Assembly (NCBI GenBank): GCA_965116815.1
Contig: OZ220722.1
Location: forward strand, 149,962-213,961
Length of the DNA stretch: 64,000 nucleotides
Reading direction: 5' to 3'
Source: Candidatus Poribacteria bacterium
GTDB taxonomy: Bacteria > Poribacteria > WGA-4E > WGA-3G
In this document: positions 9,869 to 64,000 of the stretch, piece by piece
Layout of the letters: each line of letters opens with the position of its first letter
Position numbering within the stretch: the first letter of the stretch is position 1
Made by a program: the position numbers and the translations under genes
Notes under the pieces: generated by a model
What the model saw: the letters and a program-made list of their open reading frames with translations, nothing else
The model's database searches: none
Told to the model about the DNA's origin: nothing

Positions 9869-12475
9869 TCATTTTACTATACAAAATTTGCCGGTACTCT
9901 GGAACCCATTCCCATCGGTTGCCCGGAAGAAGTATAGCCCAGTGCAGACCATTTCGCCACGTGCGTTTGTGCAATCCCATTCAGATGCACTATTTAGCAC
10001 TTTGATTAAGTTTCCCAAAGTGTCGTAGATTTCAATAGTCAATCCCTTCGGATAGAAGGTGAGGTGTTTACCCTGCCCTGCATAAAGCGGGTTCGGTGCC
10101 ACCATAACATTCCGATGCTCGCTGTTCGCAATATAGTTGAAAGTGCGTCCCTGCCAAATTTGGGTGCCTGTTACACCAGCGGCGGATTGTCCACGAATTT
10201 TATAGAAATAGATACCCGTCGGTGGAAATCCGTTTGTTCGGAGTGTTCCAAGCCATTTCGTCTCGGTTTTCTGTGTTAAAACGACAGTATAATCGTTGTT
10301 ATCAGGCCCCTCCACTATCAAGTGGGGTGCGGCTTGTAGCGGTCGCGTGCTTTGAACTTCAATCTGCCATTCACCCGTGCCGTGCGGTTGAGTATCAATA
10401 AAGAAAGCAGGTGCCGTGCTTGTGGTATCCACGCTTGGGATAATACCGTTCGGCGCAATGCTTGGTGTGCCCATAAGTCCTATCGCATCAACAGGCACAA
10501 CGGCATAGTAATAATGGAGGTTGTTTGGATCAAAGAACTCGCTATCAACATCAATTCCCTCAAAGATAGTGGGGTCTTCAAACCTATTTTGCGTCACGCC
10601 AACGCGTCCGACGATGTTTATATCGTCTTCAGGGATGCCGTCTCCATTGCTATCGGCAGCACCGTGCACCACATCAGGATTCTCAAAAGGTTGAGGTACA
10701 TCTGTTTCGCGCAGCAGTAGAGAGCGTTTTCTGACGATTACGACTTCCCGAATACCCACCGGGTTCTCAACATCCCACGTTACAACCGGTCCATTAGTGC
10801 CTTGAGAGACCTGCGCGTTTGAAAGCGTTCCAGCCGACGGGGCACCCGCTGTATAACTAACAGATCCGCCAAAACTGCCACCTGGAATCACGACACGTTC
10901 GACATCAGGGTGCATATTAATTAAGATGAGGGTAATCTCCTGAATATCTCCCCCGAAATCCTTGAAGGTCATCTGCGCTTCTTGGGAACGTTGATAGGTG
11001 AACACCTCCCGGATGTCAGTGGTCCCATTCCGTTTCCTAACGATAAACTTGGCAGCCCACCCACGCAAACCGGTACCGCTGTGCCGCTGCAGTTCACTCT
11101 GAATGTTCTGTTGATCCTCAGGGGGAAGGCGACCGAGATTTATCGGCGCGAGGTCTGCGCCATCAATTCTAATGGCGAATTCCGGCATAATACCTGCCGG
11201 ACGGAAGACAATATACCGTGACGAGAAATGCTCAGGCATGGACTCTGAATCGAAATCGGCATGAACCGGATAACTCGTGTGGACATCGTTGGGATGAATA
11301 GCGATTGGTGGAAAGCGATGGGCGTTCCTATAGCCCGACATTCCAGTTGCCGTATTGGCGCGGGTATGCGTAAAATAATTCCACACCGTGAAGGTCTTGA
11401 ATGCCTCCGCGAGCGTGGTGCCGTTATCCGTAAAGACATCGTAGAAATTGCCCATCTCGCGATAACTGCCATCGGTGGTATTCCGGTAAAACTGCCGGAC
11501 GATATCGTACCCGAACCGTTCCGCCATGTATAAGGTCCAGATAACCGAACCGTACTCGTGGTCCCCGATACGACTCTCAAGTGAAATATCCGGAATGAGG
11601 AACCAGCGACGGAGCTGGTGGATGTAATAGTTATAGGAATTGGTTTCGTTCGGTTCATCAGGATCGGGAAGTGTATCGCCATCGTCAATAACCCCGCCAT
11701 CATACGTCATCACCTCTATCCAAGTTGCGGACGCTTCCATGAACCATGTCGGCATATAGGCATTATATCCAAACTGGACACCGTGCAGGAACTCATGTGT
11801 ACAAGTTGTCTCAAGATAGCGAATCCCCTCCGCTTTCCCGACGTAATCGTAGATACGAGAGTTGATCATGAAATAGGGCGCAACAGTTAGGGCAGTGGAT
11901 AAGACGCGTCCCTCAAACCAATCTGCCGTCGTGATACCAAGCGCAGGAAAAGTAAAAAGGTAGACATCGTATTTATGATTGCCACCGTTCTGCGCCGCCC
12001 AAAAATCGATGTAGGGAATTTTGAATCCCATCAGGTCAATTTGGACGTGATACGCACGTTCCATCGCATCGGCACAGAGATCAACATAATCGGGAACCCC
12101 ATTTCGTGGATGGAAATCCTCAAGGGGTGGGGCATGTGGACCGATACGCGTGTAATGGAATCTGAAATGTGGTGTATTGAATTTCTCTGGCAACTCCACC
12201 TCACCGAAGAAACTACCGGGAAGCCCAGGTCGAAGGAAAATTCCCTTTAGCTGCTGCCGATGCACGGAGGGCAAATTTTGCCAATTCTTGGCGAGGGTGA
12301 CAAAACTATCGGTTGCACATTCTGTGATTTCGCTTGCGGTATACCTCGGTTTGAGATTGGCGAACTGTCGAGCCGTTTGGATTGCACTTTGGAGTTCGGG
12401 ATCCGGTGGAAGCGTGTATGCCACGGATGAGAATACTATAGAGAGCACGATGACAAAAATAAACAGCAATTTCAT
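9869..12475 (-). CDS. Secreted HExxH metalloprotease-like protein with T9SS/FlgD-Ig-like C-terminal sorting domain
   Basis: Signal peptide MKLLFIFVIVLSIVFSSVAYT. CTHEFLHGVQ (HExxH). C-terminus ...GLYFFRATDGNGFQSTGKFCIVK. Confidence 0.7.
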   Translation of the reverse strand: MKLLFIFVIVLSIVFSSVAYTLPPDPELQSAIQTARQFANLKPRYTASEITECATDSFVTLAKNWQNLPSVHRQQLKGIFLRPGLPGSFFGEVELPEKFNTPHFRFHYTRIGPHAPPLEDFHPRNGVPDYVDLCADAMERAYHVQIDLMGFKIPYIDFWAAQNGGNHKYDVYLFTFPALGITTADWFEGRVLSTALTVAPYFMINSRIYDYVGKAEGIRYLETTCTHEFLHGVQFGYNAYMPTWFMEASATWIEVMTYDGGVIDDGDTLPDPDEPNETNSYNYYIHQLRRWFLIPDISLESRIGDHEYGSVIWTLYMAERFGYDIVRQFYRNTTDGSYREMGNFYDVFTDNGTTLAEAFKTFTVWNYFTHTRANTATGMSGYRNAHRFPPIAIHPNDVHTSYPVHADFDSESMPEHFSSRYIVFRPAGIMPEFAIRIDGADLAPINLGRLPPEDQQNIQSELQRHSGTGLRGWAAKFIVRKRNGTTDIREVFTYQRSQEAQMTFKDFGGDIQEITLILINMHPDVERVVIPGGSFGGSVSYTAGAPSAGTLSNAQVSQGTNGPVVTWDVENPVGIREVVIVRKRSLLLRETDVPQPFENPDVVHGAADSNGDGIPEDDINIVGRVGVTQNRFEDPTIFEGIDVDSEFFDPNNLHYYYAVVPVDAIGLMGTPSIAPNGIIPSVDTTSTAPAFFIDTQPHGTGEWQIEVQSTRPLQAAPHLIVEGPDNNDYTVVLTQKTETKWLGTLRTNGFPPTGIYFYKIRGQSAAGVTGTQIWQGRTFNYIANSEHRNVMVAPNPLYAGQGKHLTFYPKGLTIEIYDTLGNLIKVLNSASEWDCTNARGEMVCTGLYFFRATDGNGFQSTGKFCIVK

Positions 12476-13261: not shown

Positions 13262-14044
13262 TTAACGCGCTTTGATGGCACCCCACGTGAGCGCAAGTTT
13301 TCCTGCCGGTTCAACGTCAAAGGCAATTTGATAATTCGCCATAACCTCTTTGTCATCTAAGACACGATGGTAGACAGCAACATCATCAATCTCACCCTCG
13401 AAATAGAAGGGCTTGATAAAAGCATTACGGTCGTGTCCAACCGCGACAACAACATGGCTCCGCGTGTCGCGACTGTTTATCTTTCCATCCGCCTCGGCAT
13501 CGAGTTCACCGTTGATGTAGAGGAACTTTTTCTCGTCCTTGCCAGCAGCGACAAACGTGACATGCGTCCATTCTCCAGCTTTGACAGCGGTCTTCGTTTT
13601 GAAGACACCGAACCCATCACCGCCTCTCTGGGTTTGTATTGTACCGTCTGCTAAAAGTTCCAGCCATGAATCGCCGCCGCCTTGTGGATCATCGTCCCAG
13701 ATGATGACCTTTGGTCCGGCAGGTAGAGCTACCGGATTAATCCACATTGCGTAGGTAAGATCCTGTCCTGTGGTGGCTGGTCCCATGACGACATAATCCT
13801 CTTTACCGTTGAAACTGAGCGCATCTCCAACAATGCCCTCTACAATCTTGGGGGCACCTTTAATCTCCCCATCGTTTTCACCGAGGGCATCTTTGGCTAC
13901 CTTGGCATCGGTATCGCCCTTATCAAAAGTCCAATGCCCTCCCAATCCGTCTTCAATCGATTGTGCGTGTGCTATTCCTGTATACGCGGCTGCAAAGACA
14001 ACGACCGCCGCGCAAAAGAGCGTAAAGTATAGACCGAATTTCAT
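13262..14044 (-). CDS. Secreted LamG/concanavalin-like domain protein ending in the TWGxLK tag
   Basis: Start at MKFGLYFTLFCAAVVVFAAA (signal). LamG-like core (ALSFNGKEDYVV...WTHVTF...LYINGEL...IDDVAVYHRVL). C-terminus VEPAGKLALTWGAIKAR. Confidence 0.7.
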   Translation of the reverse strand: MKFGLYFTLFCAAVVVFAAAYTGIAHAQSIEDGLGGHWTFDKGDTDAKVAKDALGENDGEIKGAPKIVEGIVGDALSFNGKEDYVVMGPATTGQDLTYAMWINPVALPAGPKVIIWDDDPQGGGDSWLELLADGTIQTQRGGDGFGVFKTKTAVKAGEWTHVTFVAAGKDEKKFLYINGELDAEADGKINSRDTRSHVVVAVGHDRNAFIKPFYFEGEIDDVAVYHRVLDDKEVMANYQIAFDVEPAGKLALTWGAIKAR

Positions 14045-14360
14045 CTGTTCACCTCCTGGGTATCGTAAACCCATGATGTGCAATGTATTCGTCCAACAGA
14101 AATAAGATGCTCACTACTTCCATTTAACACCGATGTACATTATATACTGTTTTGGACGGATACGCAAGGGAAATAGTAGAGATATAGCATCCCGCTGGCA
14201 TGTAGGGTTTGAACGACTCTTGCTATAGATATGTTGCTCCTACGAGCCGGAAGATAATTTGAGACGGTGGACCGGCGAGGTTGGGAAATCTCGCTTACCG
14301 ATGGGAAAAATGAAGAGTCGGGATTCGGAGATCCCTCCTACAGCAATCGGGAGATTGCTC

Positions 14361-15002
14361 CTATAAGTCTTTGAGTGCTGCCCATGTTGTTGCTAATTTG
14401 TCTGAAGGGCTAACCGCTTGTGGTTCAGCACCTTCGATGTCGCTTACATGTTCACCTTCGTAGAGACGGATATGATCAAGCCAGACATCCACTTTTTGTT
14501 CGCCCATGATTATACCGGCGCGTGAATTCGCATCATCTGCCGTCATTTTGAACGTGATGAAGAATTCCTTCCACGTTTCAGACAGATTGATTGTCTGCCT
14601 CGCATATTCATTCCACGGCGCACCTTGATGTAGAATACGGATTACGACAGTTCTCGGTTTTTCGCTTTTCGCCCACAAGTTGTAAGTATAGGTCGTCCCT
14701 TTCTCCAACGTGAAAGGTTGCTGATAGAATTGGATATGCCATAGCGCGCCCGCTTTGCTAATTTTGACATAGACAACCTTCTTTCCAACGACCGGTTCCG
14801 CCTTTTTGCCCTCGGTTTGGAAAAGCGCAGCATCGGCATGCGTCCAATGGTGCCATCCTTCAAGATTGAGGTCGAAATCGCCGTTTTTGAGGATATTTTC
14901 CGGCGGTTTCTCAGCATAAGCAAGCGTTACACCCCCGAACAGCAACATCAGCACAAACAAGTAGGTGTAAGTTAGAATTCTTTTAGTTATGTTCATCTTC
15001 AT
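14361..15002 (-). CDS. Secreted carbohydrate-binding-module-like (CBM4/9-like jelly roll) protein ending in the TWGxLK tag
   Basis: AGGAGAGG directly upstream of ATGAAGATG. Signal/TM segment. NGDFDLNLEGWHHW...WLDHIRLYEG pattern. C-terminus SPSDKLATTWAALKDL. Confidence 0.6.
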   Translation of the reverse strand: MKMNITKRILTYTYLFVLMLLFGGVTLAYAEKPPENILKNGDFDLNLEGWHHWTHADAALFQTEGKKAEPVVGKKVVYVKISKAGALWHIQFYQQPFTLEKGTTYTYNLWAKSEKPRTVVIRILHQGAPWNEYARQTINLSETWKEFFITFKMTADDANSRAGIIMGEQKVDVWLDHIRLYEGEHVSDIEGAEPQAVSPSDKLATTWAALKDL

Positions 15003-15980: not shown

Positions 15981-15991
15981 TAGAGAGGTTT

Positions 15992-16108
15992 CCCGGCAGC
16001 GACCTACTTTCCCGCGGGGTCGCCCCCGAAGTATCATCAGCGCTGAAGGGCTTAACTACCGTGTTCGGGATGGGTACGGGTGGGTCCCCTTCGCTATAGC
16101 CACCGGAA
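15992..16108 (-). rRNA. rrf: 5S ribosomal RNA
   Basis: Reverse complement reads CCGGTGGCTATAGCGAAGGGGACCCACCCGTACCCATCCCGAACACGGTAGTTAAGCCCTTCAGCGCTGATGATACTTCGGGGGCGACCCCGCGGGAAAGTAGGTCGCTGCCGGG. Confidence 0.9.
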
Positions 16109-16123
16109 AGGTGTATAAGAATA

Positions 16124-16140
16124 TTTGACAATTGTATAGA
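16124..16140 (-). promoter_or_regulatory. 3' half of the 23S processing stem
   Basis: TTTGACAATTGTATAGA is the perfect 17-nt complement of 19184-19200. The two halves bracket the 23S gene (RNase III-type stem). Confidence 0.7.
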
Positions 16141-16169
16141 ATGTGAGGAGTCGGTAGAAGAAAGGAAGT

Positions 16170-19156
<2,987 letters not shown>

Positions 19157-19183
19157 GTAATATCATTCTACCGATTTACCCTC

Positions 19184-19200
19184 TCTATACAATTGTCAAA
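19184..19200 (-). promoter_or_regulatory. 5' half of the 23S processing stem
   Basis: TCTATACAATTGTCAAA, complementary to 16124-16140. Confidence 0.7.
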
Positions 19201-19228
19201 GAACAATGCCTATTTGTTATATAGGCGA

Positions 19229-19301
19229 TGGAGATGAGCGGAATTGAACCGCTGACCTTCTGGTTGCAAACCAGATGCTCTCCCAACTGAGCTACACCCC
19301 C
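19229..19301 (-). tRNA. tRNA-Ala(UGC): tRNA-Ala (anticodon UGC), no encoded CCA
   Basis: GGGGGTGTAGCTCAGTTGGGAGAGCATCTGGTTTGCAACCAGAAGGTCAGCGGTTCAATTCCGCTCATCTCCA. Folds as a 7/4/5/5 cloverleaf with the G3:U70 Ala identity pair and anticodon loop TTTGCAA. Confidence 0.92.
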
Positions 19302-19317
19302 ATGTGGCATGCTCTTA

Positions 19318-19347
19318 AGTATACCACAATCACGATATGAATGTCAA
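19318..19347 (-). promoter_or_regulatory. rrn promoter copy 1 (proximal)
   Basis: Minus strand: AAAAATAAAT-TTGACA (19347-19342), 18 nt, TATACT (19323-19318), with TGTGG just upstream of the -10. Confidence 0.6.
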
Positions 19348-19365
19348 ATTTATTTTTCAAAAATC

Positions 19366-19432
19366 GACCAGGGAGGAATCGCACCTCGCCTTCGGCTTTT
19401 CAAACCGAAACTCCTAATTTGAGCAACTGGTC
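19366..19432 (-). ncRNA. Degenerate tRNA-like element (Phe-type GAA anticodon loop), 67 nt
   Basis: GACCAGTTGCTCAAATTAGGAGTTTCGGTTTGAAAAGCCGAAGGCGAGGTGCGATTCCTCCCTGGTC. 6-bp acceptor, 3-bp D stem, 5-bp anticodon stem with loop TTGAAAA, 4-bp T stem with loop TGCGATT (non-canonical). Confidence 0.35.
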
Positions 19433-19447
19433 CAAAAGACGTTATTA

Positions 19448-19652: not shown

Positions 19653-20627
19653 TTAATCTGTGTGTTGTGTTTTCAGTTTTCCCCAAGTCGTCACGAAAGA
19701 TTCAGCAGGTTCAACAGGATAGGCATCATTCATCCATTCAAACACCCACTCTGTTCCTTTAATTCCCAGCAAAATTGGTTTAGGTTCACCACCTGTTGCA
19801 GGAATTATGAAGTTGCCGATCGCTTGGAATTGCTCAATGTTTTGGACATCCAATTTCGTATAGGAAACATAGGCGATGTATTGCCCATCCGGGGACCAGA
19901 CGGGATTTCTATAGAGGTAGTCTTTTCTAACACGTAGCACGTTGACATCTGCATTAGGGCGTGGGGTGGTAACAGCCAACCCTGTTGTCCACAGTTGACC
20001 TTTTCGGACAACTGATGCACTAAAGACAATCTGCTTGCCATTCGGTGAAAAAGCAGGGTCGTCTGCTTTCTCTGCGATTTGAAAAACTTCTTTGGTAACA
20101 ATGTCAAAAAGATATAAATTGTTACGATGAGAAAAAACAATTTGTTGTCCATTGGGTGCCCACTCAACAGCATCAGCCCATTCCCAATCCAAGAGTTTTT
20201 CTACTGCCGGTTCACGTTTTACCAACTCTCGACTCTTTATTAGATACAATCCACCCTCATATCCGAAAGCGACATCCCCGTTTTTTGAAATATCAGCGTA
20301 TTCTATCCAATCAAATCTGCCTTTTGTTAAGTTCTTTTGAGAGGTTTTCGGGTTGCGTAGATCGAAAAGATAAATATCCCACTGCGACCAGGGTTCCTCG
20401 GCAACGGCAAGGATGTAATCACCGCCTTTTTGTATCGAAAGGCAATGAACTTGTTCAAAGGTTTGTGGGAAGAGTTGACGGGCGTTGGTGCCATCCACAT
20501 TAGAAATCCAGATTTCGCCCCAATCCAATGGATGCACAAAGATAATCTCGCCGCTCGGCACAGCATCCGCAGGGTTTGAAAAAAAGATGAACAAGAAACA
20601 TAAACAGCACACGCTATACCTATTCAT
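19653..20627 (-). CDS. Secreted PD40/TolB-like beta-propeller protein ending in the TWGxLK tag
   Basis: Signal peptide. PD40-like repeats (DPAFSPNGKQIVFS, NPVWSPDGQYIAYVS). C-terminus VEPAESFVTTWGKLKTQHTD. Confidence 0.7.
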   Translation of the reverse strand: MNRYSVCCLCFLFIFFSNPADAVPSGEIIFVHPLDWGEIWISNVDGTNARQLFPQTFEQVHCLSIQKGGDYILAVAEEPWSQWDIYLFDLRNPKTSQKNLTKGRFDWIEYADISKNGDVAFGYEGGLYLIKSRELVKREPAVEKLLDWEWADAVEWAPNGQQIVFSHRNNLYLFDIVTKEVFQIAEKADDPAFSPNGKQIVFSASVVRKGQLWTTGLAVTTPRPNADVNVLRVRKDYLYRNPVWSPDGQYIAYVSYTKLDVQNIEQFQAIGNFIIPATGGEPKPILLGIKGTEWVFEWMNDAYPVEPAESFVTTWGKLKTQHTD

Positions 20628-21639
20628 ATTTGACTCCAGTCAAGCCATTCGCCTTCAGTTCCCCCCATGTCGTTGTAAGCAAATTGGTAAGGGGATATTT
20701 TTTACGCGTCCATTCAAACGTACGTAATCCACCCTCAAACGCTCGAAAAATTGGTATATGTTGTTTGCCACCGTTGACTCGAACTGCGAAACAGGATAAT
20801 TGATCCTGCGAATCGTATAGTGCGTAAGCGATGTATCTCCCATCGGCTGACCATGTGATATATTGCGGAAAACTACCTTTTTCAATCTTCAATTGCTTTA
20901 CGTCAGCAGGGGCATCAAGGGCAACAATACCAATTCCATAAGTTCGTTTCAGTTGATTTTGCGAGAATGTCCTGGTAAAAAAAGCAAGGTGCTTTCCATC
21001 TGGTGAGAAAACTGGACGGAAACCATCTTCGCCTACTACCAGCGATGTCTGTCTGGTAAAAATATTGAGCAGAAATATTCCATCGAGATTGGAAAAAACG
21101 ATGTCTTCTCCATTAGGAGACCAGTCTACATAACCCGCGGGTCCGTTAAATAATTTCTCTGCCTTTGGAATAGGCGTGTGTACCTCGTGGCTCGGGATGA
21201 GATAAATTCCATCTGGATGTGCCTGATTAATTATGTTTGAGAAAACAACATCCCCGTTGCGTGAAATGGCTGCATCGGAAATTTCACTGAATCGTCCCAA
21301 GGTTAAATCCTTCCGACCAGCACGCGGATTCTGAGTATCCAAAAGGTACGCATCAACTCCGATTTCCTCCTCCCCAATTCTTTTGTTTTCCATTCCCTCA
21401 GCAACAACAAGGATGTACCGGTCACCTTCCTGTACTGAGAGTTCCATTGTAAATAGTGGCAGTTTGAAAAGCCCACGTGCATTGCGCCCATCCACGCTGC
21501 TCATCCATATCTCAAAGGGTTCGGTCGAGTGCGAGAATATGATTTTCCCAGACGGTGCAGCATGTATAGTGAAAGGAAAAAGTAGGAGAATGAGGCACAA
21601 ACTAAAAAACTTCGCTCGATTCCTAAACAATATTTTCAT
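20620..21639 (-). CDS. Secreted PD40/TolB-like beta-propeller protein (tandem paralogue) ending in the TWGxLK tag
   Basis: Start at MKILFRNRAKFFSLCLILLLFPFTIHA. Repeats VDWSPNGEDIVFS, PVFSPDGKHLAFF, ITWSADGRYIAYA. C-terminus LLTTTWGELKANGLTGVKYE. Confidence 0.7.
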   Translation of the reverse strand: MKILFRNRAKFFSLCLILLLFPFTIHAAPSGKIIFSHSTEPFEIWMSSVDGRNARGLFKLPLFTMELSVQEGDRYILVVAEGMENKRIGEEEIGVDAYLLDTQNPRAGRKDLTLGRFSEISDAAISRNGDVVFSNIINQAHPDGIYLIPSHEVHTPIPKAEKLFNGPAGYVDWSPNGEDIVFSNLDGIFLLNIFTRQTSLVVGEDGFRPVFSPDGKHLAFFTRTFSQNQLKRTYGIGIVALDAPADVKQLKIEKGSFPQYITWSADGRYIAYALYDSQDQLSCFAVRVNGGKQHIPIFRAFEGGLRTFEWTRKKYPLTNLLTTTWGELKANGLTGVKYE

Positions 21640-21852: not shown

Positions 21853-24800
21853 TTAATTCCCTTCCAGCTGCGCCTGTCCATCGGAATTCGCTGAACCAAG
21901 CCAGAGTTTAATGGCGGGACTGCTCGCAATACGCCGTTGACCGACGGACGCATTGATGACAACAGTATATGGAACGGTTTGTTGTGTGCCGACGAAGGGA
22001 TTACGTCGCAACTGATTGGTGCCCCTGCCGCTCGTAATAATATTTGGCACAAGGGTCAAAGTGGCTTCGGTCTTATTCCTTTGGAGTAAGGTGTTCTGTC
22101 GCTGGAGCCGCACCCCGAAAGGTAAGCCAACAGCAGTCAGATTCAGATTTTGCCTATTACCGCTTTGTCTCGCAACTTTGACGGCGATGTCAATCCGGGA
22201 ATCTGGAGTTACCACAACCTCCTTCAGTCCCGTTGACAGTATAATAGGTGCAGCTTCCCTAATGCTGGCCACAACGTTCTTGCGCTGAACAGTCTGATCG
22301 TTGTTCTGAATACGATAGATCTCAACGGGTGTGGCGGCGCGATGGAATTCATCACCAGTGGCAGTGGTAACAGAACCTACAACTTGAACCACAGAATTCG
22401 CTAAATCGGCATCGGGAGCAGCCGTGAGGGTTACGTACCCCTGTGTAATACCAGTACTGGAGAGAATTGCACTTTCACTGGCAGTGATGTCGGGTGGTAA
22501 GTTCTCAACGGACAAGAGTATCGGCTCTGTAAATCCGACACGACGCTGCAGCGTCACCTCCAATAGGACAGTTCCACCGCGTCCGATATTCGGATTATCC
22601 GGTGTCACAGAGATAGCGAAATCCGGGGTCGTCGGACGGGCATCTAAGTGGTAAACGTACCCTGCGCCTCCGTTGCCTGTGATGTCCTCAATGCGGACAG
22701 CATATACGCCGGGTTCATCGAAACTGTAATCAATGATAGCATTGCGTCTTCCACCAATACCAGCATTATTTGCCAATACCTCACCACTTGCATTGAGCAG
22801 GGTAAGCGATGGACTCAGCGGTGAATTGAGGCGTTCCGCGGAGACAGTCAAAGAGTAGCCCCCTATATCTGCAAAAAATCCCCAGGGTCCGTATCCATTC
22901 GTAACCTTCACCAGAATCTTGTTTCTGCCCTTAGAGATCGGCAGCTGGATCACATCATCTGCACGGCGTAACGGGCGATGGACGTATTTACTAAAGACGA
23001 GTCGGTCATTCACCCATATCTTGATAGTATCGTCTGAACCGAGGGATAAGAGATAGTTCTGGTCCCGATCAGCGTCGAGATAGGTTAAGGCATAGCCTGT
23101 AACATCGTCTTCAGGAACATTTGAAAAAACGTTTTCACCTCTACTCTCGGTTTTATACCATCCAATCTTTCGTCCATCTTTGCCGATGTATTCCTTGTTA
23201 AAATCTATCTCAGTTTCAGGAGGATAAACGGTATCAAATCCGGTCTCATCAATGTTATCAAACGGGAAGATCACCCACCACGGACCGAGGCTTGTCCCTT
23301 CTGAAATGGTAAAGCGGTAGTAGTCCGCTTCACCGGGTTCTGAAATGCGTCCACTGATTGCGCCGGGTGTTGTGATGTGTTGTGCGTGTTCAAGCTGGCG
23401 GGCAATGAGTTCACCTAAACGTTGCGCCTCTTGCGCAACAAAAGCGATGATCCGCTCACGTTCGGTCGTTGTAATGTCTGCGTTCTCTTTATTCGACATG
23501 CGTATAATCGTGCTTTCCCACTCCTCGGCAGAGAGCGCGCGATTGCTCGGTGAACGGAGTTCATGGCACGCTGTACATTTCGCTTGAAAAAGGATTTCAG
23601 ACTCAGCAAACTGAGGGGCGATCTCTTTTGCAACCGTTTCATTCTCGGTGGATTGAGCCACGACATTTTCTTCGATAACTTCTGGGTGGTCGTTAACAAT
23701 GAAGGGAAAAATGCCGTAAGGCGTACGGATCTGCTTGAGTCCAGGTTGCTCAGCACCCGTTAATTCGACCTGCCACTCGGTTTCAGGAAGATTTTCACCG
23801 CCAATAACACACTCAACAATATTGACTTCGGTAGGTGTGGACGGTCCATAAAAGCGTTTCGTCTCCGCTTCCAGCACAGGGAGCGTTCCGCCAGCAGGGA
23901 AAAGGTAGGTATTGTAAGGGAGAACGCCACCCGTTAATCGGTAAACCGAATCCGGATTGCCGCGATGTAACAAATCTCGGATGCGCAGTACGTATGGACC
24001 GTTGGCAGGAAGTGTAATATCAAGAAGCGGATCCAGACTGTAGAAGCCGTTACTCCGTGCCAACTCAACGCCTCTCTCATCGAAAAGAGACAAGGTCGGA
24101 TTGAAGAATTGTTGACTAATGTTGTTGAGACGATACGCTTTGACGCTGAACACGCACCGCTCTCCCTCGACTCCCTCAAAAACGTAATAATCTTCGTCTC
24201 CGCCCGGATTAATGAGTCCATTGATGAGGGTCGGCAATTCAATAGTGGTAGCGGATTCCGGGGTGTTATTCGACTCCGTTTCAAGAATGTCAGGCGTATC
24301 GCTAACCTCAAAGGGCCATGCGGTGGAGGTCCCGTGCTTACCGACGACCCGAACTTCACGCAGTCCGATGGGCGCATCCGGTGCGATAGACAACTCCGCG
24401 GTTAAACCCCCACTGGCTCTCGCTGCCGATGTGAGATAGGCGATAATTTGGGGTTCCGCTTCCGCACTGATCTCCGCGCCTTTTTCCGTAATCATCCGCT
24501 GAACAGTCGCCTTCCACTGCGCCGGAGTCATCGATCGATTGTTTGGAGAACGCAGCTCGTGACACTGTCCACAATTTGCCTCAAAAACAGGCTTGTGCGT
24601 CTCATCAACCTCACCGCCACTCGGGTGAAGTTGGGCAGTAATACCGGTTTCGCCCCCAATAATGAGGGTATGTGCCCCTTCTAAATCGGAGCCTTGAATG
24701 GCAACCTCTACAGTCGTGCCGGGTTGTCCTCCCGCCGGAAACAGCGAATTGAGCCGTGGGATCCCTTGAGCAAACGTAAGGACATTAATTAAAGAAGAAA

Positions 24801-24879
24801 GGAACAGAGCGAAAAGCATTTGGGTTATGCTTGCAAGACGATAGCGTCTCACCAAAATGAACATCGTATTGGTACGCAT
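21853..24879 (-). CDS. Large secreted protein with two c-type haem-binding motifs and pre-peptidase-C-terminal-like domains
   Basis: Signal peptide. CGQCHELRSP and CTACHELRSP (CxxCH x2). PPC-like GDEDYYVF and GEADYYRF segments. Jelly-roll-like region. Confidence 0.65.
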   Translation of the reverse strand: MRTNTMFILVRRYRLASITQMLFALFLSSLINVLTFAQGIPRLNSLFPAGGQPGTTVEVAIQGSDLEGAHTLIIGGETGITAQLHPSGGEVDETHKPVFEANCGQCHELRSPNNRSMTPAQWKATVQRMITEKGAEISAEAEPQIIAYLTSAARASGGLTAELSIAPDAPIGLREVRVVGKHGTSTAWPFEVSDTPDILETESNNTPESATTIELPTLINGLINPGGDEDYYVFEGVEGERCVFSVKAYRLNNISQQFFNPTLSLFDERGVELARSNGFYSLDPLLDITLPANGPYVLRIRDLLHRGNPDSVYRLTGGVLPYNTYLFPAGGTLPVLEAETKRFYGPSTPTEVNIVECVIGGENLPETEWQVELTGAEQPGLKQIRTPYGIFPFIVNDHPEVIEENVVAQSTENETVAKEIAPQFAESEILFQAKCTACHELRSPSNRALSAEEWESTIIRMSNKENADITTTERERIIAFVAQEAQRLGELIARQLEHAQHITTPGAISGRISEPGEADYYRFTISEGTSLGPWWVIFPFDNIDETGFDTVYPPETEIDFNKEYIGKDGRKIGWYKTESRGENVFSNVPEDDVTGYALTYLDADRDQNYLLSLGSDDTIKIWVNDRLVFSKYVHRPLRRADDVIQLPISKGRNKILVKVTNGYGPWGFFADIGGYSLTVSAERLNSPLSPSLTLLNASGEVLANNAGIGGRRNAIIDYSFDEPGVYAVRIEDITGNGGAGYVYHLDARPTTPDFAISVTPDNPNIGRGGTVLLEVTLQRRVGFTEPILLSVENLPPDITASESAILSSTGITQGYVTLTAAPDADLANSVVQVVGSVTTATGDEFHRAATPVEIYRIQNNDQTVQRKNVVASIREAAPIILSTGLKEVVVTPDSRIDIAVKVARQSGNRQNLNLTAVGLPFGVRLQRQNTLLQRNKTEATLTLVPNIITSGRGTNQLRRNPFVGTQQTVPYTVVINASVGQRRIASSPAIKLWLGSANSDGQAQLEGN

Positions 24880-24900
24880 CGTGAAAGGTCCTCCAAAAAA

Positions 24901-25989
24901 CTATTCCTCAGAATCCGTGAGTTCGTGAGTTAAGGCACGTGTACGGAGATTCCAAAGTCGGACTCTGCCATCACGACCACCCGCCGCAACAAACTCGCCA
25001 TTCGGACTGATCCGCACGGCGTAAACGGCATCCGTCGGTTCATCAAAAGTTACATAACGGTTGCCGGACCGAAGATTCCAGATAATCACGGAAGCATCCG
25101 CACTACCGGAGGCGATCATCGCCACTCGATTATTCGCCTGCCGAGGTGATACAAGCCCAGAATCCACACTGTAGACAGGACCCTGATGTCCGTTGTATTC
25201 ACGAACCAAAGCCCCTGTCATTTCCAATGAGTCTCGTCCCACAGCAATTTCATCGTCATCTTCGACTGGCACAACACGCCACGTCCGAACAGTATTATCG
25301 GCGGAACCAGAGACTATTACACCTTCTCTGGCTGAATACGCGAGACTATACACCGCGTCATCGTTGGCATCGAAGTTCACTAAAACGGTAAAGGTTTCCG
25401 GATTCCAGACCTTTATCGTTTTATCTTCACTACCAGTGACGAAGTAGTTGCCTGCTGGATGATACAAGGTGCAGAGGACTCTACCAACATGTTGGGTGAG
25501 CCATTTAGAAACCTGATCGTCTATGGAAAAGTCGCTACTTTCCAGTGGTGTTAAGTCGATAACAGCACTATACTCATCCATGCTGGCAGTGAGTAAAGTT
25601 GTGTCACTTGGGCTGAGCGAGATGGATTCAATGGTATCACCGTGAATCTCAAAACTGTTTATCAGTTCTTCAGAGATGACATTCCAAACGCGTATCTCAC
25701 CGCTTTGGGAAGCCAAACCGCTGCTCGTATAGAGGGTTTTACCATCTGAGGAAAACGCGAGACTCCTCACCTCACCGACATGCGGTTCATAGGTGTAAAT
25801 GACGCGTCGCGTCTCCAGATCCCAGAGTTCAACCCACTGATATTTTCCAACAGCGAGGGTCTTGCCATCCGGGCTAAATTCAAGTGACCAGATTGGAGAT
25901 AACGGTCCTGCCGCAAAACAGAGAGGGGTCGCGAAGATAGCGTAGGACACTGCTATTAGTTTTGCGATGTTACGAAGTCTTCCACCCAT
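24901..25989 (-). CDS. Secreted WD40-repeat beta-propeller protein
   Basis: Signal peptide. Repeated ...SPDGKTLA..., GEIRVWN, DKTIKVWN, DNTVRTWR, ASVIIWN, GRVRLWN WD-type blades. Confidence 0.75.
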   Translation of the reverse strand: MGGRLRNIAKLIAVSYAIFATPLCFAAGPLSPIWSLEFSPDGKTLAVGKYQWVELWDLETRRVIYTYEPHVGEVRSLAFSSDGKTLYTSSGLASQSGEIRVWNVISEELINSFEIHGDTIESISLSPSDTTLLTASMDEYSAVIDLTPLESSDFSIDDQVSKWLTQHVGRVLCTLYHPAGNYFVTGSEDKTIKVWNPETFTVLVNFDANDDAVYSLAYSAREGVIVSGSADNTVRTWRVVPVEDDDEIAVGRDSLEMTGALVREYNGHQGPVYSVDSGLVSPRQANNRVAMIASGSADASVIIWNLRSGNRYVTFDEPTDAVYAVRISPNGEFVAAGGRDGRVRLWNLRTRALTHELTDSEE

Positions 25990-26004
25990 ACTTAGACCTC
26001 GGAA

Positions 26005-26158
26005 ATGGCTATCAGCAGTCGGAAGCCATCAGCTGTCAGTGGTACTTGGATAGTTTAGGTGCTCCAAGATCGAACGGAGGAGTCCTCCCGGATATCAAAA
26101 AGCGATACGGGCTTCCAATCCCTATTTGCTGAAAACTGACTGCTGATGGCTGACCGCT
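26005..26158. repeat. Family A-variant palindromic element (GGCTATCAGC type)
   Basis: Left arm ATGGCTATCAGCAGTCGGAAGCCATCAGCTGTCAGTGG, right arm GCTGAAAACTGACTGCTGATGGCTGACCGC. Fills the whole gap between two genes. Confidence 0.6.
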
Positions 26159-26160
26159 AA

Positions 26161-27477
26161 TTACGCAAGAACACCGCGAACAGGTCTACCACCTCGTGAG
26201 AGGACAATGCGGACACCATCCGGGGATTCCAGATGCTCATTATAATCAATACCGAGGGATTGATAGAGTGTTGCCGACAAGTCTTCGGGACGCACGGGCG
26301 TTTCTGCAGGCTCAATACCAAGTGGATCCGAAGCACCGATGACCTGTCCACCTTGAACACCACCACCTGCTAACATAATCGAAAAGACACGGGAGTGGTG
26401 GTCGCGTCCAGCATTGCGGTTAATGACAGGGGTCCTGCCAAATTCACCCATTGCAACGACAAGCGTTGTCTCCAACAATCCACGGTCGCTCAGGTCTCCG
26501 ATTAAGGTAGCCATCGTCCGGTCAAAGCCGTTGAGCTTACCCGGCAATGATGAAAAGATGTTGTTGTGGTTATCCCAGCCACCGTTACTGACAGTGACGA
26601 AGTTAACGCCTGCCTCAACGAGCCTTCTGGCGAGAAGACAACTCTGTCCGAAAGTGTTGCGTTGATACGCATCGCGCGTTTTGTCTGACTCGTTGCTGAG
26701 GTCAAACGCAGCACGGGCATCGGTAGAACTCATTAGATTGTAAGCGGAGGTATAGAACTTATCAACCGCTTCAGCGGCTGGATTGCCTGTCTCATACTTC
26801 TTGAAGGCGGCATCAACAGCCTCACGCAATGAACGCCGCCGTTCGACGCGTTCATAAGAAACCCCTTTAGGTGGCTCTAAATCGCGCACTTTAAAGTTCT
26901 TACTCGCCGGGTTTCCACCGGGTGAGAAAGGGGCAAGCGACGCACCTAAGAAGCCTCCACCACCATAAGCAACCGGCGCAGGCACAGCGATATAGGGTGG
27001 CAAGGCACTTCGCTGCTCTTTGAGTTTGGAGACAACAGCACCGTATCCTGGGACAGCAAAACCGGGTAAAGGTTGATAACCTGTCATCATATAGTGTGTT
27101 CCGCGCTCATGCGCTGCCTCTGGAGATGTCATCGAACGGATGATGCAGAGTTTATCGGTCTGCTGTGCAAGTCGGGGGAGATGCTCGCTGATCTGGATAC
27201 CACTGACGTTTGTCGGTATCGGTTTGAAAAGCCCACGAATCTCTTCAGGCGCATCCGGTTTGAGATCCCACATATCAAGGTGGCTCGGACCGCCACCTAA
27301 CCAAACAAGAATAACAGAGGTAGCAGTTTCTTTCATCCGAGATGTAGTTCCAGCTTGCGCTTTAAGTCGGAATAGATCTGTGAGACTGAGACCAAATAAG
27401 CCGAGGGCACCAGCCTTGAGAAAATCTCGGCGGTAAAACCCTTCGCAATCCGTGTGTATGCTTCTGTTTTCTGCCAT
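26161..27477 (-). CDS. DUF1501 family (sulfatase-like) protein with twin-arginine signal
   Basis: AAGGAG 7 nt upstream of ATG 27477. FYRRDFLKAGALGLFGLS Tat motif. ...WDLKPDAP..., GGWDNHNN, EFGRTP and GRDHH motifs typical of DUF1501. Confidence 0.75.
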   Translation of the reverse strand: MAENRSIHTDCEGFYRRDFLKAGALGLFGLSLTDLFRLKAQAGTTSRMKETATSVILVWLGGGPSHLDMWDLKPDAPEEIRGLFKPIPTNVSGIQISEHLPRLAQQTDKLCIIRSMTSPEAAHERGTHYMMTGYQPLPGFAVPGYGAVVSKLKEQRSALPPYIAVPAPVAYGGGGFLGASLAPFSPGGNPASKNFKVRDLEPPKGVSYERVERRRSLREAVDAAFKKYETGNPAAEAVDKFYTSAYNLMSSTDARAAFDLSNESDKTRDAYQRNTFGQSCLLARRLVEAGVNFVTVSNGGWDNHNNIFSSLPGKLNGFDRTMATLIGDLSDRGLLETTLVVAMGEFGRTPVINRNAGRDHHSRVFSIMLAGGGVQGGQVIGASDPLGIEPAETPVRPEDLSATLYQSLGIDYNEHLESPDGVRIVLSRGGRPVRGVLA

Positions 27478-27488
27478 GGTTTTTCTCC

Positions 27489-28931: not shown

Positions 28932-28946
28932 AATTTATGTCCATTA

Positions 28947-29717: not shown

Positions 29718-29743
29718 TTCTTAATTATGTGCCTCGCAAGAGG

Positions 29744-29862
29744 GTTGTCGGTTATCGGTACGGTTTTTCTACGAAAAACCTTTCGGTTATCGGTTAAGAG
29801 GAAGACTTGATGATTTAGGTTTCCGTCTTAACCGACAACTGACAACTGATGACTGACAACCG
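29744..29862. repeat. Family A palindromic element
   Basis: GTTGTCGGTTATCGGTA...TTTCGGTTATCGGTTAAGAGG - loop - GTCTTAACCGACAACTGACAACTGATGACTGACAACCG. Abuts the TAA stop (29863-29865) of the Kelch gene. Confidence 0.7.
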
Positions 29863-30987
29863 TTATTGTGTCATTTTAATCGTTGCCCACGTTTTCAGAA
29901 GTTTTCCTATTGGAGTGACGAGCCCACGAACTATTGCCGTGTCATAAACCTCGACATTTACAAGTGGATCTTCATTACCGCCGCTATTTCCACCAAGGAT
30001 ATAGATTTGCCTATCTATTGGCTGAGCCCCATGACCATTTTTACCGGTCGGCATGTCCGGTGCCTGAGTCCAACGATCGGTTTTGGGATCGGAAATTTCA
30101 ATCGTTGGTAGATATAAGTAGGGTCCCTTGTCTCTGAAACCACCACCTATTACATATATTTTTCCATCCACAACACTCGCCGTGTGAAGTGATTTTGGGG
30201 TAGGCATCTCTGCTACATCCTTCCAACGATTTGTTTTTGGATCGAAAACCTCAACACTGGAAAGAAAAGGACCTGGATGATTTGGAATTTGGGGCCATCC
30301 GGTTCCGCCCATGACGTAAATCTTTCCATCCATAACACTGACTGCAGCACCAGCGCGAATATGGTTCATATTTCTGGCTTTCGCCCATGTGTCAGTGACC
30401 GGGTCATATACCTCCACGGTTTTTAGCCGCGTCGGTTTCCCCTCCTTAAAATTAATGGTTGCTGATCCACCGATGGCATATATTTTCCCGTCCACAACAC
30501 AGGTGGGAGCCATTCTGGGCGTTGGCATATCTGCTCTCTGTATCCATGTGTCTGTAACTGGATCGTACATTTCCACGGTTGGAAGTTCTTTAGGCTCCCA
30601 CACTCTAACTTTTCTCCACTCACGCCTAACCTGATCAAAGACATCAATCTCAAATCTCTTCAGTTCCGTTCCACCAATAGCGTAGATTTTTCCGTCCACA
30701 ACCGAAACAGATACACCCGTGCGGGCTGTCGGCATATCTGCTTTTCGTTCCCATGTATCGGTTTTAGGGTCGTACATTTCGACCGTTGAGAGGGACAAGT
30801 TTCCAAACCCCTCAATCTCGCCTCCTATGGCGTATATCTTTCCATTTACAATACATGTACCAAAACCGGAGCGCTGTGTCGGCATATCTGCTTTCCGCGT
30901 CCAATTTTCTTCGGCGGCAAGATTGACAACGTTGATAACCAACAACGCACATAAAATCAGGATTCCGAAGGTCAAATGAGTTTTCAC
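29863..30987 (-). CDS. Secreted Kelch-repeat beta-propeller protein with divergent TWxxIK tail
   Basis: Signal peptide MKTHLTFGILILCALLVINVVNLAAE. At least 6 repeats of DGKIYAIGG...VEMYDPxTDTW. C-terminus PIGKLLKTWATIKMTQ. Confidence 0.8.
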   Translation of the reverse strand: MKTHLTFGILILCALLVINVVNLAAEENWTRKADMPTQRSGFGTCIVNGKIYAIGGEIEGFGNLSLSTVEMYDPKTDTWERKADMPTARTGVSVSVVDGKIYAIGGTELKRFEIDVFDQVRREWRKVRVWEPKELPTVEMYDPVTDTWIQRADMPTPRMAPTCVVDGKIYAIGGSATINFKEGKPTRLKTVEVYDPVTDTWAKARNMNHIRAGAAVSVMDGKIYVMGGTGWPQIPNHPGPFLSSVEVFDPKTNRWKDVAEMPTPKSLHTASVVDGKIYVIGGGFRDKGPYLYLPTIEISDPKTDRWTQAPDMPTGKNGHGAQPIDRQIYILGGNSGGNEDPLVNVEVYDTAIVRGLVTPIGKLLKTWATIKMTQ

Positions 30988-57175: not shown

Positions 57176-57982
57176 TTACGGCACCCGCTTAAGGTATCCC
57201 CAACGCGTTGCGAGTTTCCCACCGGGCTCAACGCTGAGAATTTGCGCTAACCCGACATCCATCGCCTCTTGAATTTCATCTTCAGTTCGTGCGACATTGG
57301 AGATGCGTATCTCGTCAATGATACCTTTTAATCCATTTGCGTTATCGAGATTCGGCACACCGATTGTAATCGGATCGTTACTCTGAAACGTCTGAGCGTT
57401 CGGAGCCTCGGTCTCCAATTCGCCATCAACGTAAACGCGTCCCATCTTACCATCATAAGTAAAGGCGAGGTGATGCCATTTATTATCCGTGATGTCGGTC
57501 GTCCCATCTATACTGAACGCGCATCCACCATTTGCCCCGATCTGTGCATGCAAAACGCTCTTATCTACATGAACCCAAATGCCGTAGTTTCGATTAGTGC
57601 ACCCCGCCTGCTGTTTGCAGACCATGCCCTGCCATTTCCCTGTGGACTCTTTCACTTTAACCCACGCTTCAATACTGAGCGTTTCTAACTCAAGTTCCTT
57701 CGTAGAATCCACGACCACGTAGCCGCCAGCATCGCCAGGGAGCTCCAATCCTGCCCCGAATTTCGCTTTGACCCACTTCGGACTTCCCGCAAATTTGCCA
57801 TCGTGCCCGTTGCCAGAGGCATCCTGCACCGTTTTCCCGGTCCCCTCTTCAAAAAGCCAAACAGCAACTGTATTTTCATCAACCGCTGCACGTGTAGATA
57901 CGCAGATAAACAACGTTAAAACCGCCATTGCGATAAAAGTATACTTGATGCTATAGCAAAATTTTGTATCCATGGTGCGCAT
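57176..57982 (-). CDS. Secreted LamG domain protein ending in the TWGxLK tag
   Basis: AGGAGG 6 nt upstream of the ATG. Signal/TM segment. LamG core (WHHLAFTYDG...VYVDGEL...IDEIRISN). C-terminus VEPGGKLATRWGYLKRVP. Confidence 0.75.
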   Translation of the reverse strand: MRTMDTKFCYSIKYTFIAMAVLTLFICVSTRAAVDENTVAVWLFEEGTGKTVQDASGNGHDGKFAGSPKWVKAKFGAGLELPGDAGGYVVVDSTKELELETLSIEAWVKVKESTGKWQGMVCKQQAGCTNRNYGIWVHVDKSVLHAQIGANGGCAFSIDGTTDITDNKWHHLAFTYDGKMGRVYVDGELETEAPNAQTFQSNDPITIGVPNLDNANGLKGIIDEIRISNVARTEDEIQEAMDVGLAQILSVEPGGKLATRWGYLKRVP

Positions 57983-63026: not shown

Positions 63027-64000
63027 TTAGTCACGTGATTGTTTCAATACACCCCACTGCGTCGCAAACTTACCTTTAGCGGAAATGAACCCTCTCAAGC
63101 GGACCGTAGCTAACGTCTGACGCTCACCCGCCAAGGATACATCTTCAATCTGGTAATAGTAGATGACGTTCGGTTTCGCTGTGGCATCCGTCCATGTGTA
63201 GGTAGTGCTTTCCGCTTTCGTACCTGCCCCCGGAATCAGCTGCGCGTTGACGATCTTGAATTCACCCATCTTCGTTTGACTCCGCAGGATATTGAACCCC
63301 GCGTTGTCCACCTCAGATTGGGTTGTCCACTGGATGACAATTGCGCCGCTCTCGGTGCGTTCCGGACGGAAGTGTGAGAGTTCAACAGGGAGTTCGCCCC
63401 CTGCTCGGATGCCCGGACTACCGTAGTCGGAGCTGCTGCCATACCAAGTGTCAATTCTTTTTCTCGATAGCCACGAGAAATCGGTGTCTGCTGCGCGGAC
63501 CCATCCATCTCGCCGGGTGCCATCGTGTACTATGCCCCTGTTAGTGTACCTCCCGGTTCGCTGGTTATAGTCGCGATACCGCCGAATGATTGAAGTGCGA
63601 CTCGCGTCTTCCGTCCAACCGTCAGGCAATGCCCATGCGGGGGTCAAGGTTCGCCTATTAAGGTTTCCAACCTCATCGGCGGGATTACCTCTCCCATCAA
63701 CGAGCTGGATGTGGAACCCCTGGGTTGGGTGTAAGAAAGGATCGCGCCGGCTATTCATACCAAATTCACGAGCGAGTTCTGAGTAGACGCTGAAGACGCG
63801 GGTAGACACGAAGTGATCTCGTCCAGTCCTTTTGTGAGTAGTATCAGAGTGTCTGCCATTCGATGAGACGATGAGCACCGTTTGGTCCGCCGCGATAGTT
63901 TTTACGCTACCGCTATTTTTAAAATTAATTGTCCGGGGGAACCGATCGTCGTAGTTTTCAATGATGAGCTCCCATCCGCTGCCAGCATCTAAGGCAACGG
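63027..64000 (-). CDS. Secreted/surface protein, N-terminus beyond the window, ending in the TWGxLK tag
   Basis: The frame stays open from 63878 to nt 64000 (no stop). C-terminal beta-rich module ...VELSHFRPERTESGAIVIQWTTQSEVDNAGFNILRS... ends AKGKFATQWGVLKQSRD. Confidence 0.65.
   Translation of the reverse strand, partial: VALDAGSGWELIIENYDDRFPRTINFKNSGSVKTIAADQTVLIVSSNGRHSDTTHKRTGRDHFVSTRVFSVYSELAREFGMNSRRDPFLHPTQGFHIQLVDGRGNPADEVGNLNRRTLTPAWALPDGWTEDASRTSIIRRYRDYNQRTGRYTNRGIVHDGTRRDGWVRAADTDFSWLSRKRIDTWYGSSSDYGSPGIRAGGELPVELSHFRPERTESGAIVIQWTTQSEVDNAGFNILRSQTKMGEFKIVNAQLIPGAGTKAESTTYTWTDATAKPNVIYYYQIEDVSLAGERQTLATVRLRGFISAKGKFATQWGVLKQSRD

Follow-up and report, generated by a model that had tools for sequence, protein, structure and literature searches.

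A short C-terminal tail shared by unrelated signal-peptide proteins of Candidatus Poribacteria as a candidate localization tag

Seven genes with a common ending

A stretch of 64,000 nucleotides from a Candidatus Poribacteria genome (contig OZ220722.1), referred to here as the window, includes seven genes whose products end in the same short peptide, the tail or tag. An initial annotation had described this shared ending, and all seven open reading frames (ORFs), which lie on the minus strand, were present at their positions with the endings as it had written them. The gene at 13262..14044 encodes a secreted protein of 260 amino acids with the signal peptide MKFGLYFTLFCAAVVVFAAAYTGIAHA, a LamG domain (Laminin_G_3, PF13385, E=3.8e-20) at residues 93-247, and the tag VEPAGKLALTWGAIKAR at residues 244-260 (13265..13315). 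The gene at 14361..15002 specifies a secreted CBM_4_9 protein (PF02018, E=3.9e-20) of 213 amino acids with a signal peptide at its N-terminus, MKMNITKRILTYTYLFVLMLLFGGVTLAYA, and the tag VSPSDKLATTWAALKDL (14364..14414), which scored 28.6 bits with a hidden Markov model (HMM) built from the tail only. Two genes for secreted PD40 beta-propellers are tandem paralogues. The product of 19653..20627 (324 amino acids, PF07676, E=6.4e-13) has a signal peptide at the N-terminus MNRYSVCCLCFLFIFFSNPADA and the tag VEPAESFVTTWGKLKTQHTD (19656..19715, 26.1 bits), and that of 20620..21639 (339 amino acids, PF07676, E=1e-7) has a signal peptide at the N-terminus MKILFRNRAKFFSLCLILLLFPFTIHA and a divergent tag, YPLTNLLTTTWGELKANGLTGVKYE (20623..20697). 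This last tail obtained the lowest HMM score of the seven (20.5 bits) and is the least canonical, with no V-E-P-x-G-K and with 10 residues after the Lys. A Kelch beta-propeller gene with a GTG start codon (29863..30987, Kelch_1, E=8.4e-77) codes for a secreted protein of 374 amino acids with a signal peptide and the tag VTPIGKLLKTWATIKMTQ (29866..29919). The second LamG gene (57176..57982, PF13385, E=2e-28) belongs to a different subfamily; its secreted product of 268 amino acids has a signal peptide, with the hydrophobic core FIAMAVLTLFICVSTRA at the N-terminus, and ends in the tag VEPGGKLATRWGYLKRVP (57179..57232, 27.5 bits). The seventh gene is truncated by the end of the window, and its 3′ part (63027..64000) encodes the C-terminal ~323 amino acids of a member of a giant He_PIG/LTD-type surface-protein family, ending in the tag ISAKGKFATQWGVLKQSRD (63030..63086, 22.5 bits). 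The Pfam scan assigned no domain to this partial protein, which has a weak LTD match and is 47% identical (E=7e-71) to the C-terminus of a 1681-amino acid tagged protein found in another locus, L064. The Pfam assignments (Laminin_G_3 twice, CBM_4_9, PD40 twice, Kelch, and none for the partial protein) agree with the proposal that the carriers have different folds, and a signal-peptide-like N-terminus was found, as had been annotated, in all six proteins that are N-terminally complete.

A six-frame scan of the window for the loose core W[GAS]x[LIVMF]K, covering ORFs of 20 or more amino acids, gave eight matches. Seven of these occurrences are located 2-10 residues before the stop codon of long ORFs, and the eighth is in a junk ORF of 35 amino acids. 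The codons for the conserved tail residues differ synonymously among the genes (AAA/AAG; CTT/TTA/CTC/TTG; ACG/ACA/ACT; GGT/GGA/GGG/GCA), and the DNA that follows each stop codon is unrelated between the seven genes. These results indicated that the tag is a repeated peptide and not a DNA element, and a repeat at the DNA level was rejected because the synonymous sites vary. Upstream of the valine at position -10, V(-10), the sequences of the carrier families are unrelated. The conserved unit is longer than the 12-15 amino acids initially annotated, extending over ~17-20 amino acids from V(-10) to the C-terminus.

Conservation, carriers, and distribution of the tail

The consensus of 360 distinct tails is [LT]-A-V(96%)-[ED]-P(65%)-A-G(79%)-K(97%)-L(94%)-[ATS]-T(72%)-T(87%)-W-G(85%)-x-[IL]-K-[ATS]-[RSQ]-[RK], with near-invariant V, K, L, T, W, G, and K and a content of ~45 bits over 17 positions, a logo that is partly shaped by selection as W, K, and, in the DNA-seeded set, GKLxTTWG were search criteria. 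In 917 kb of poribacterial DNA, the core was found at most 15 amino acids from a stop codon 186 times, and its 19 occurrences elsewhere were chance 5-mers without the upstream context. The number of residues after the Lys ranged from 0 to 12 with a sharp peak at 3 (89 cases), followed by 2 (44 cases), and the last residue was R, K, or Q in 227 of the 360 tails. The residues following the Lys are mostly polar and include no hydrophobic stretch, which bears out the initial observation that neither a transmembrane (TM) helix nor a basic tail comes after the motif. One PD40 protein of 222 amino acids, P0177, has an internal copy of the tag, VSVEPMGKLKTMWGKLKEKD, in addition to the terminal one, and resembles two tandem tagged genes fused by the loss of a stop codon.

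Homologues of two of the window proteins illustrate how the tail is maintained. Residues L250, W254, and K258 of the LamG protein (13262..14044) are invariant in 34 homologues and belong to just nine invariant columns of the LamG alignment. The tail is kept in all 49 full-length LamG homologues, down to 26% identity, the sole exception being P0034. This orthologue shares 68% identity with the window protein and has, in place of the tail, ~110 amino acids ending in a weak match to the type A C-terminal domain (CTD) of the type IX secretion system (T9SS). This swap suggests that the tail and the T9SS-like CTD may be alternative C-terminal modules. Soluble secreted homologues of the Kelch protein keep the tail in 95 out of 100 cases, with its K and W 98-99% conserved, while the non-consensus fraction of the domain is 0.222. 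The tail is decaying in 20 paralogues tethered to the inner membrane, which consist of an extracytoplasmic function (ECF) sigma factor, one TM helix, and a periplasmic Kelch domain. All 20 have another residue in place of the G, 5 have lost the W, and 45% differ at the I/L position; divergence is faster in the tail (0.126) than in the domain (0.074). Since the tail is kept in the soluble Kelch proteins and decays in the tethered ones, these alignments suggest that an exported protein requires the tag only if nothing else tethers it. Proteins P0378-P0405 (~649 amino acids) have this organization, with an ECF sigma-70 region, a TM helix at about residues 221-240, a periplasmic Kelch domain ~60% identical to that of the window, and the degenerate tag VDPMGKLVQTWETIKNSNH. 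Each looks like a one-polypeptide sigma/anti-sigma sensor that may have derived from a tagged secreted protein.

The tail follows at least 14 unrelated architectures, enzymes included. These are LamG, CBM4_9, CBM9, NPCBM, DUF1080/3-keto-disaccharide hydrolase, PD40, WD40, Kelch, BNR/Ycf48-like, cohesin, and DUF3108-like proteins, the 1681-amino acid He_PIG+LTD protein, a reprolysin-like protease with ankyrin repeats, an esterase, and several families without a Pfam match. Most carriers are small beta-rich binding modules, and the genes for the LamG-like ones are often arranged in tandem arrays. Enrichment of the tag on signal-peptide proteins, whose absence would have spoken against a sorting role, was evident in the fetched loci: by a home-made hydrophobicity heuristic, 137 of 146 complete carriers have a signal-peptide-like N-terminus, compared to 183 of 543 other complete ORFs (Fisher p = 1e-42). 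Most of the nine carriers scored as lacking a signal peptide are fragments or visibly have one. A lipobox was found in 3 of the 137 signal-peptide carriers vs 29 of the 183 other signal-peptide ORFs (p = 2e-5). Away from the seed genes, tagged proteins represented 1.7-7.5% of the ORFs, and in the window they are 7 of ~47; as a rough indication, and not a census, there would be around a hundred carriers per genome.

Relatives of the window LamG protein carry the name Candidatus Poribacteria. The back-translated pattern G-K-L-x-T-T-W-G-x-[ILFM]-K was used to scan 596 Gb of DNA from 185,579 species, each represented by one genome, and at least 119 matching blocks were found vs ~7 expected by chance. 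Among the matches listed, 109 were labelled Poribacteria, 8 were metagenome-assembled genomes (MAGs) named "uncultured bacterium", 1 was labelled Pseudomonadota, and 1 Deltaproteobacteria. The latter two loci have genuine tags: L020 (JAPPIL010000222.1, a sponge MAG with the Pseudomonadota label) includes two adjacent carriers, and the other is L062 (JAFDHL010000343.1, Deltaproteobacteria label). Mis-binning, mislabelled relatives, or transfer could be the cause, and GC and tetranucleotide composition did not discriminate between mis-binned Poribacteria DNA and another origin for these loci. A tail-only profile compared with 1.84 billion cluster representatives produced 209 matches at E<=1e-3, and 96 of the best 150 have the motif 0-11 residues from the C-terminus. 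About 42 YVTN/lactonase propeller matches in the same best 150 were discarded as false positives, as they cover just the "AVDPxGKL" half (positions 3-13) and have no TWGxIK. Every named cluster member that was looked up was from Poribacteria. The occurrence of these sequences points to a tag that is phylum-wide and essentially restricted to Poribacteria, a distribution that fits a lineage-specific partner. The sole match in the viral collection, IMGVR_UViG_3300024518_000011 (L120, 1422-2513, minus strand), codes for an esterase-like protein of 363 amino acids with a signal peptide and the ending GARGKLPTTWGEMKRQ; it is either from a (pro)phage using the tag of its host or host DNA filed as viral.

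Predicted structure, known signals, and gene neighborhoods

According to the initial annotation no described family was known to match the motif, and the databases agreed with it. Scans of bare tails at E<=10 and of whole carriers at E<=1 placed no Pfam or NCBIfam model on the tail. Comparison with PDB produced no significant match, the weak similarities (E 0.06-1.4) being to the strand-turn-strand of beta-propeller blades, and no description of the motif was found in the searchable literature. AlphaFold2 models based on real alignments were obtained for two carriers. In the LamG protein the core had a predicted local distance difference test (pLDDT) score of about 90 and the tail, which was undocked, was below 50; in the Kelch protein the propeller was above 90 and residues 360-374 were below 50 and also undocked. 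As the models leave the tail in this state on both folds, the upstream sequences are unrelated, and there is no Pfam/NCBIfam model, the motif is not the last strand of a larger known domain, an explanation that would have deprived the initial proposal of its basis. From the resemblance to propeller blades in the PDB and YVTN matches, the P-x-G-K turn, and the presence of two Thr and a Gly, the tail is predicted to be bound most probably as a beta-hairpin. The 10-residue core has a mean Eisenberg hydrophobicity of about 0.02, and its hydrophobic moment was 0.30 at 100 degrees, 0.44 at 110, and 0.55 at 160. There is no clear maximum near 100; these values and the high conservation of residue identity lean against an amphipathic helix of the PBP5/MinD type but do not decide between helix and strand.

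One of the closest known signals is the T9SS CTD (TIGR04183, type A; TIGR04131, type B). Both this domain and the tail are C-terminal, are found on many unrelated, Sec-exported passengers, and occur on many proteins per genome. However, the CTD is a folded Ig-like beta-sandwich of ~70-100 amino acids, while the tail has 17-20 and, according to the models, no fold of its own. TIGR04183/TIGR04131, Por_Secre_tail, and CHU_C did not match bare tails at E<=10 or whole carriers at E<=1. A crude regular expression for T9SS-like endings matched nothing and is uninformative. The tail is distinct from the T9SS CTD in being far shorter, as had been noted, and in lacking HMM similarity. The window also includes two large secreted proteins with T9SS type A CTDs, which the initial annotation had correctly recognized (TIGR04183, 37 and 24.2 bits, cutoff 23). 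They are encoded on the minus strand at 9869-12475 and 39397-43548; one has no other Pfam domain and the other one is a subtilase with FG-GAP repeats. For poribacterial single-cell genomes, TIGR04183 CTDs were the only such domains discussed, and no Por structural genes were reported (Kamke et al. 2014, PMC3909097); therefore, the export route of these two proteins is likewise unexplained.

The LPXTG, PEP-CTERM, PGF-CTERM, GlyGly-CTERM, and MYXO-CTERM signals are, like the tail, short C-terminal signatures on unrelated secreted proteins. Signals processed by sortases, exosortases, archaeosortases, or rhombosortases are limited to the lineages that own the cognate enzyme, and the tail is also lineage-limited; a superficial [ED]-P is located near its start. 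However, these signals are tripartite, with a motif, a TM helix, and a basic cluster, and the tail has neither of the last two. The core hydrophobicity of ~0 and the lack of NCBIfam matches support the distinction initially made from LPXTG, PEP-CTERM, GlyGly-CTERM, and PGF-CTERM, and a miniature PEP-CTERM was rejected because the tail has no TM segment. Dockerins are also C-terminal modules present on many enzymes and binding modules, and they plug into a shared scaffold. The parallel is reinforced by carriers that are mostly glycan-binding modules, one of them with a cohesin domain. However, the dockerin is a Ca-binding duplicated segment of ~60-70 amino acids with a Pfam model, while the tail is one third as long, without a Pfam match or D/N-rich loops, and no scaffold protein for such docking was identified. 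Peroxisomal targeting signal 1 (PTS1) and encapsulin cargo-loading peptides share with the tail a very short length, a C-terminal position, and independence of the fold, and they are read in an extended form by a dedicated receptor. They act in the cytoplasm on proteins without a signal peptide, whereas the tail, of different sequence, is on Sec-exported proteins. The Sec signal peptides of the carriers led to the rejection of a bacterial microcompartment or encapsulin cargo peptide.

The strand-turn-strand of NHL/YVTN blades, such as SPSGKFVTQWGE in PAL (3fvz) or the SVAVDPSGKFAYVAN repeats, is similar to the first half of the tail, A-V-D/E-P-x-G-K-L/F-x-T-x-W-G. Those families consist of tandem repeats of ~40 amino acids that form a propeller, whereas the tail has just one segment like half a blade, located at the C-terminus of non-propeller proteins; the similarity may be taken as a hint to conformation only. 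The outer-membrane beta-signal ends in an aromatic residue and closes a transmembrane barrel, while the tail ends mostly in R, K, or Q and is found on soluble LamG, Kelch, and CBM folds. Type I secretion signals are present on proteins that leave the cytoplasm directly and have no N-terminal signal peptide, while most tail carriers have one. The tag fails the defining features of the T9SS CTD, sortase-type, outer-membrane beta-signal, type I, dockerin, and YVTN/NHL classes. By analogy, it would function as a short counterpart of the T9SS CTD or the dockerin, or as a peptide of the PTS1 type.

The recurrent neighbors of tag genes are abundant metabolic families (Gfo/Idh/MocA, PhyH, xylose-isomerase-like TIM barrel, sulfatase, FGE, methyltransferase, and alpha-2-macroglobulin/PBP1C). 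No cognate sortase-type enzyme was noticed among the 842 ORFs adjoining tag genes, which were not scanned with sortase models, and the rest of the window has no secretion or peptide-binding machinery. A neighboring TPR protein was considered as a partner and rejected because its gene is always beside an FG-GAP/ASPIC gene within a single syntenic block. In this conserved block, one or two tag genes come after those for an FG-GAP/ASPIC-type protein, a TPR protein that is secreted, and (in several of the loci) an FGE/SUMF1-like protein; the block occurs in the poribacterial loci L009, L089, L066, L088, L021, L022, L050, L002, and L029. In the window, the tagged Kelch gene sits in the middle of a Pup-proteasome cluster (27489-35772, minus strand) with two Pup-ligase/deamidase family genes (27489-28889 and 32236-33786), a proteasomal ATPase gene (33934-35772), a proteasome subunit gene (31001-31918), and probably a second one (28947-29720). 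Four tandem paralogues of the beta-lactamase-family serine hydrolases (51734-57188, minus strand) share the C-terminal sequence ...QF[KR]VL[TV]YQ[ST][LI]..., two of them with signal peptides. This array is directly upstream of the second LamG gene (57176), with an overlap of a few bases, and a TnpB/IS605 OrfB-like gene (58450-60072, plus strand) with a Cas12f1-like TNB domain and HTH_OrfB_IS605 is found just downstream of the same tag gene. The region 15991-19434 (minus strand) encodes 23S and 5S rRNA, preceded by tRNA-Ala and a second, weak tRNA (ARAGORN, Phe-GAA; Rfam, 33.9 bits). There is no 16S gene beside them, as the next upstream feature is the PD40 tag gene at 19653, and the 16S gene appears to be unlinked. 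A Planctomycete-style trio (21853-27546, minus strand) codes for a secreted protein of 1008 amino acids with two c-type heme-binding-like segments, a WD40 propeller with a signal peptide, and a DUF1501 protein.

Proposed role of the tail

Taken with the association of the tail with signal peptides and unrelated passengers, these comparisons led us to propose that it is a localization tag recognized in trans after Sec export, through which a phylum-specific partner would sort or tether the protein in the envelope. We regard this explanation as somewhat probable. In this pathway the N-terminal signal peptide, the enrichment of which is the observed part, would deliver the protein to the periplasm through Sec. 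The passenger domain would then fold while the tail, as in the AlphaFold2 models, remains free and flexible, and one shared component of the envelope would bind it. The most likely mode of binding would be the addition of a beta-hairpin to the edge of a beta-sheet of the partner, with the strand A-V-E/D, the turn P-x-G-K, the strand L-A-T-T-W, and then G-x-I/L-K; the contacts would be made by V, K, L, T, T, W, G, and K. Binding would set the destination, with delivery to the outer membrane or beyond it, or retention in the envelope or on the cell surface, and trimming after the Lys may occur. Candidate outcomes would then be outer-membrane export, attachment to the surface, or periplasmic docking. 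A surface outcome is favored by the giant adhesin-like carriers and the replacement of the tail by a CTD, and a periplasmic one by the frequent neighboring genes for apparent periplasmic sugar-oxidation enzymes.

Several observations weigh against a localization tag. One expanded LamG-like family (~270 amino acids) accounts for 134 of the 165 carriers in the fetched loci, which were retrieved with a strict search pattern; the non-LamG folds are a minority, though real. AlphaFold2 draws the tail as a low-confidence helix instead of a hairpin, and just one swap of tail to CTD was found. To these points must be added the home-made signal-peptide calls and the contribution of the search criteria to the logo. 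Many carriers adjoin genes for apparent periplasmic sugar-oxidation enzymes (Gfo/Idh/MocA, xylose-isomerase-like TIM barrel, DUF1080), a neighborhood equally compatible with a strictly periplasmic function and with surface display. Neither the window nor the neighborhoods of tag genes revealed a receptor, translocon, or processing enzyme. The initial proposal is then sustained in its testable parts, as regards an autonomous element on unrelated signal-peptide passengers that differs from the described signals, and the sorting, anchoring, or processing role is a putative one. The restriction to one phylum and the predominance of one LamG-like family were not visible to the initial annotation.

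Other explanations must be weighed against the same evidence. The tail could be a membrane or lipopolysaccharide anchor that needs no partner: short and amphipathic, with a Trp at the interface and Lys/Arg on its flanks, it would keep periplasmic proteins on a membrane surface, like the C-terminal helices of PBP5 or MinD. Its C-terminal position, short length, invariant Trp, Lys flanks, and R/K bias of the last residues suit such an anchor, as do the helix drawn by AlphaFold2 and the placement of L, W, and I/L at i, i+4, and i+7, and the relaxed constraint in the TM-tethered paralogues fits it equally well. However, lipid-binding helices conserve periodicity and not identity, and the tail keeps each of V, K, L, T, T, W, G, and K in 72-100% of cases, so that, with its ~45 bits, it is too residue-specific for a generic physicochemical anchor. 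The near-invariant Gly, the two beta-branched Thr, and the P-x-G-K turn disfavor a helix, and the segment has just three hydrophobic side chains. This specific conservation, the hydrophobicity close to 0, and the lack of clear helical periodicity favor recognition by a protein, and make the anchor rather unlikely. An unlikely explanation, too, is a structural role within the carriers, in which the tail would stabilize or multimerize small lectin-like modules as a cap, strand-swap, or oligomerization hairpin and would not be an address label. The abundance of small beta-rich binding modules among the carriers and the likeness of the tail to a propeller-blade hairpin are in its favor, and the products of tandem arrays could form hetero-oligomers through their tails. 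Nonetheless, the tail was undocked and of low confidence on two folds, it is the same on unrelated architectures that include enzymes and the 1681-amino acid multi-repeat protein, and a secretion-type CTD substitutes for it in one orthologue; a folding role, moreover, would not require the strict association with signal peptides.

A signal for processing or turnover would set maturation or half-life instead of location, the tail being a propeptide cleaved behind the Lys or the site for a periplasmic C-terminal protease or a PDZ-type quality-control factor. C-terminal peptides are recognized by PDZ domains and tail-specific proteases, the invariant Lys is followed by an almost constant 2-3 residues, and the tail is exposed and flexible in the models. 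However, proteases of the Prc/Tsp type prefer apolar ends and the terminal residues of the tail are variable and polar or basic, the conserved part is 3-20 residues away from the end, and one degron common to roughly a hundred binding proteins per genome is hard to explain. We consider this role quite improbable. Finally, the tail might have no shared function, being the leftover of an expanded LamG family that spread to a few other genes by recombination, or an artefact of gene calling or of a DNA repeat. The predominance of the LamG-like cluster and the frequent tandem location of its genes are what could be expected from such an origin. However, synonymous sites vary freely and flanking DNA is unrelated, the tail is always at the very C-terminus and is more conserved than its domains across deep divergence, and it is maintained in the soluble Kelch homologues and decays in the tethered ones. 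This purifying selection at the protein level largely refutes a leftover or an artefact, which is very improbable.

Should the tail act as a localization tag, it may be part of a Poribacteria pathway that has not been recognized, in which a dedicated receptor, translocon, or transpeptidase reads a C-terminal beta-hairpin tag of ~20 residues on about a hundred Sec-exported proteins per genome for outer-membrane export or surface attachment; we put this more specific idea forward only tentatively. With neither a TM helix nor a fold of its own, the tail would be a structurally new type of bacterial C-terminal sorting signal, and, if the proposal is true, it represents a new class of such signals with a machinery yet to be discovered, for which the tag itself is a handle. 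An HMM of the tail would improve the annotation of thousands of proteins now named "hypothetical" or "LamG domain-containing". Poribacteria are uncultured, dominant symbionts of sponges that are also found in MAGs from other sources. Most tagged proteins are lectin-like, propeller, or adhesin-like, classes thought to mediate glycan capture and host contact, and a tag on perhaps 2-8% of the ORFs would define the exported interaction proteome of the phylum.

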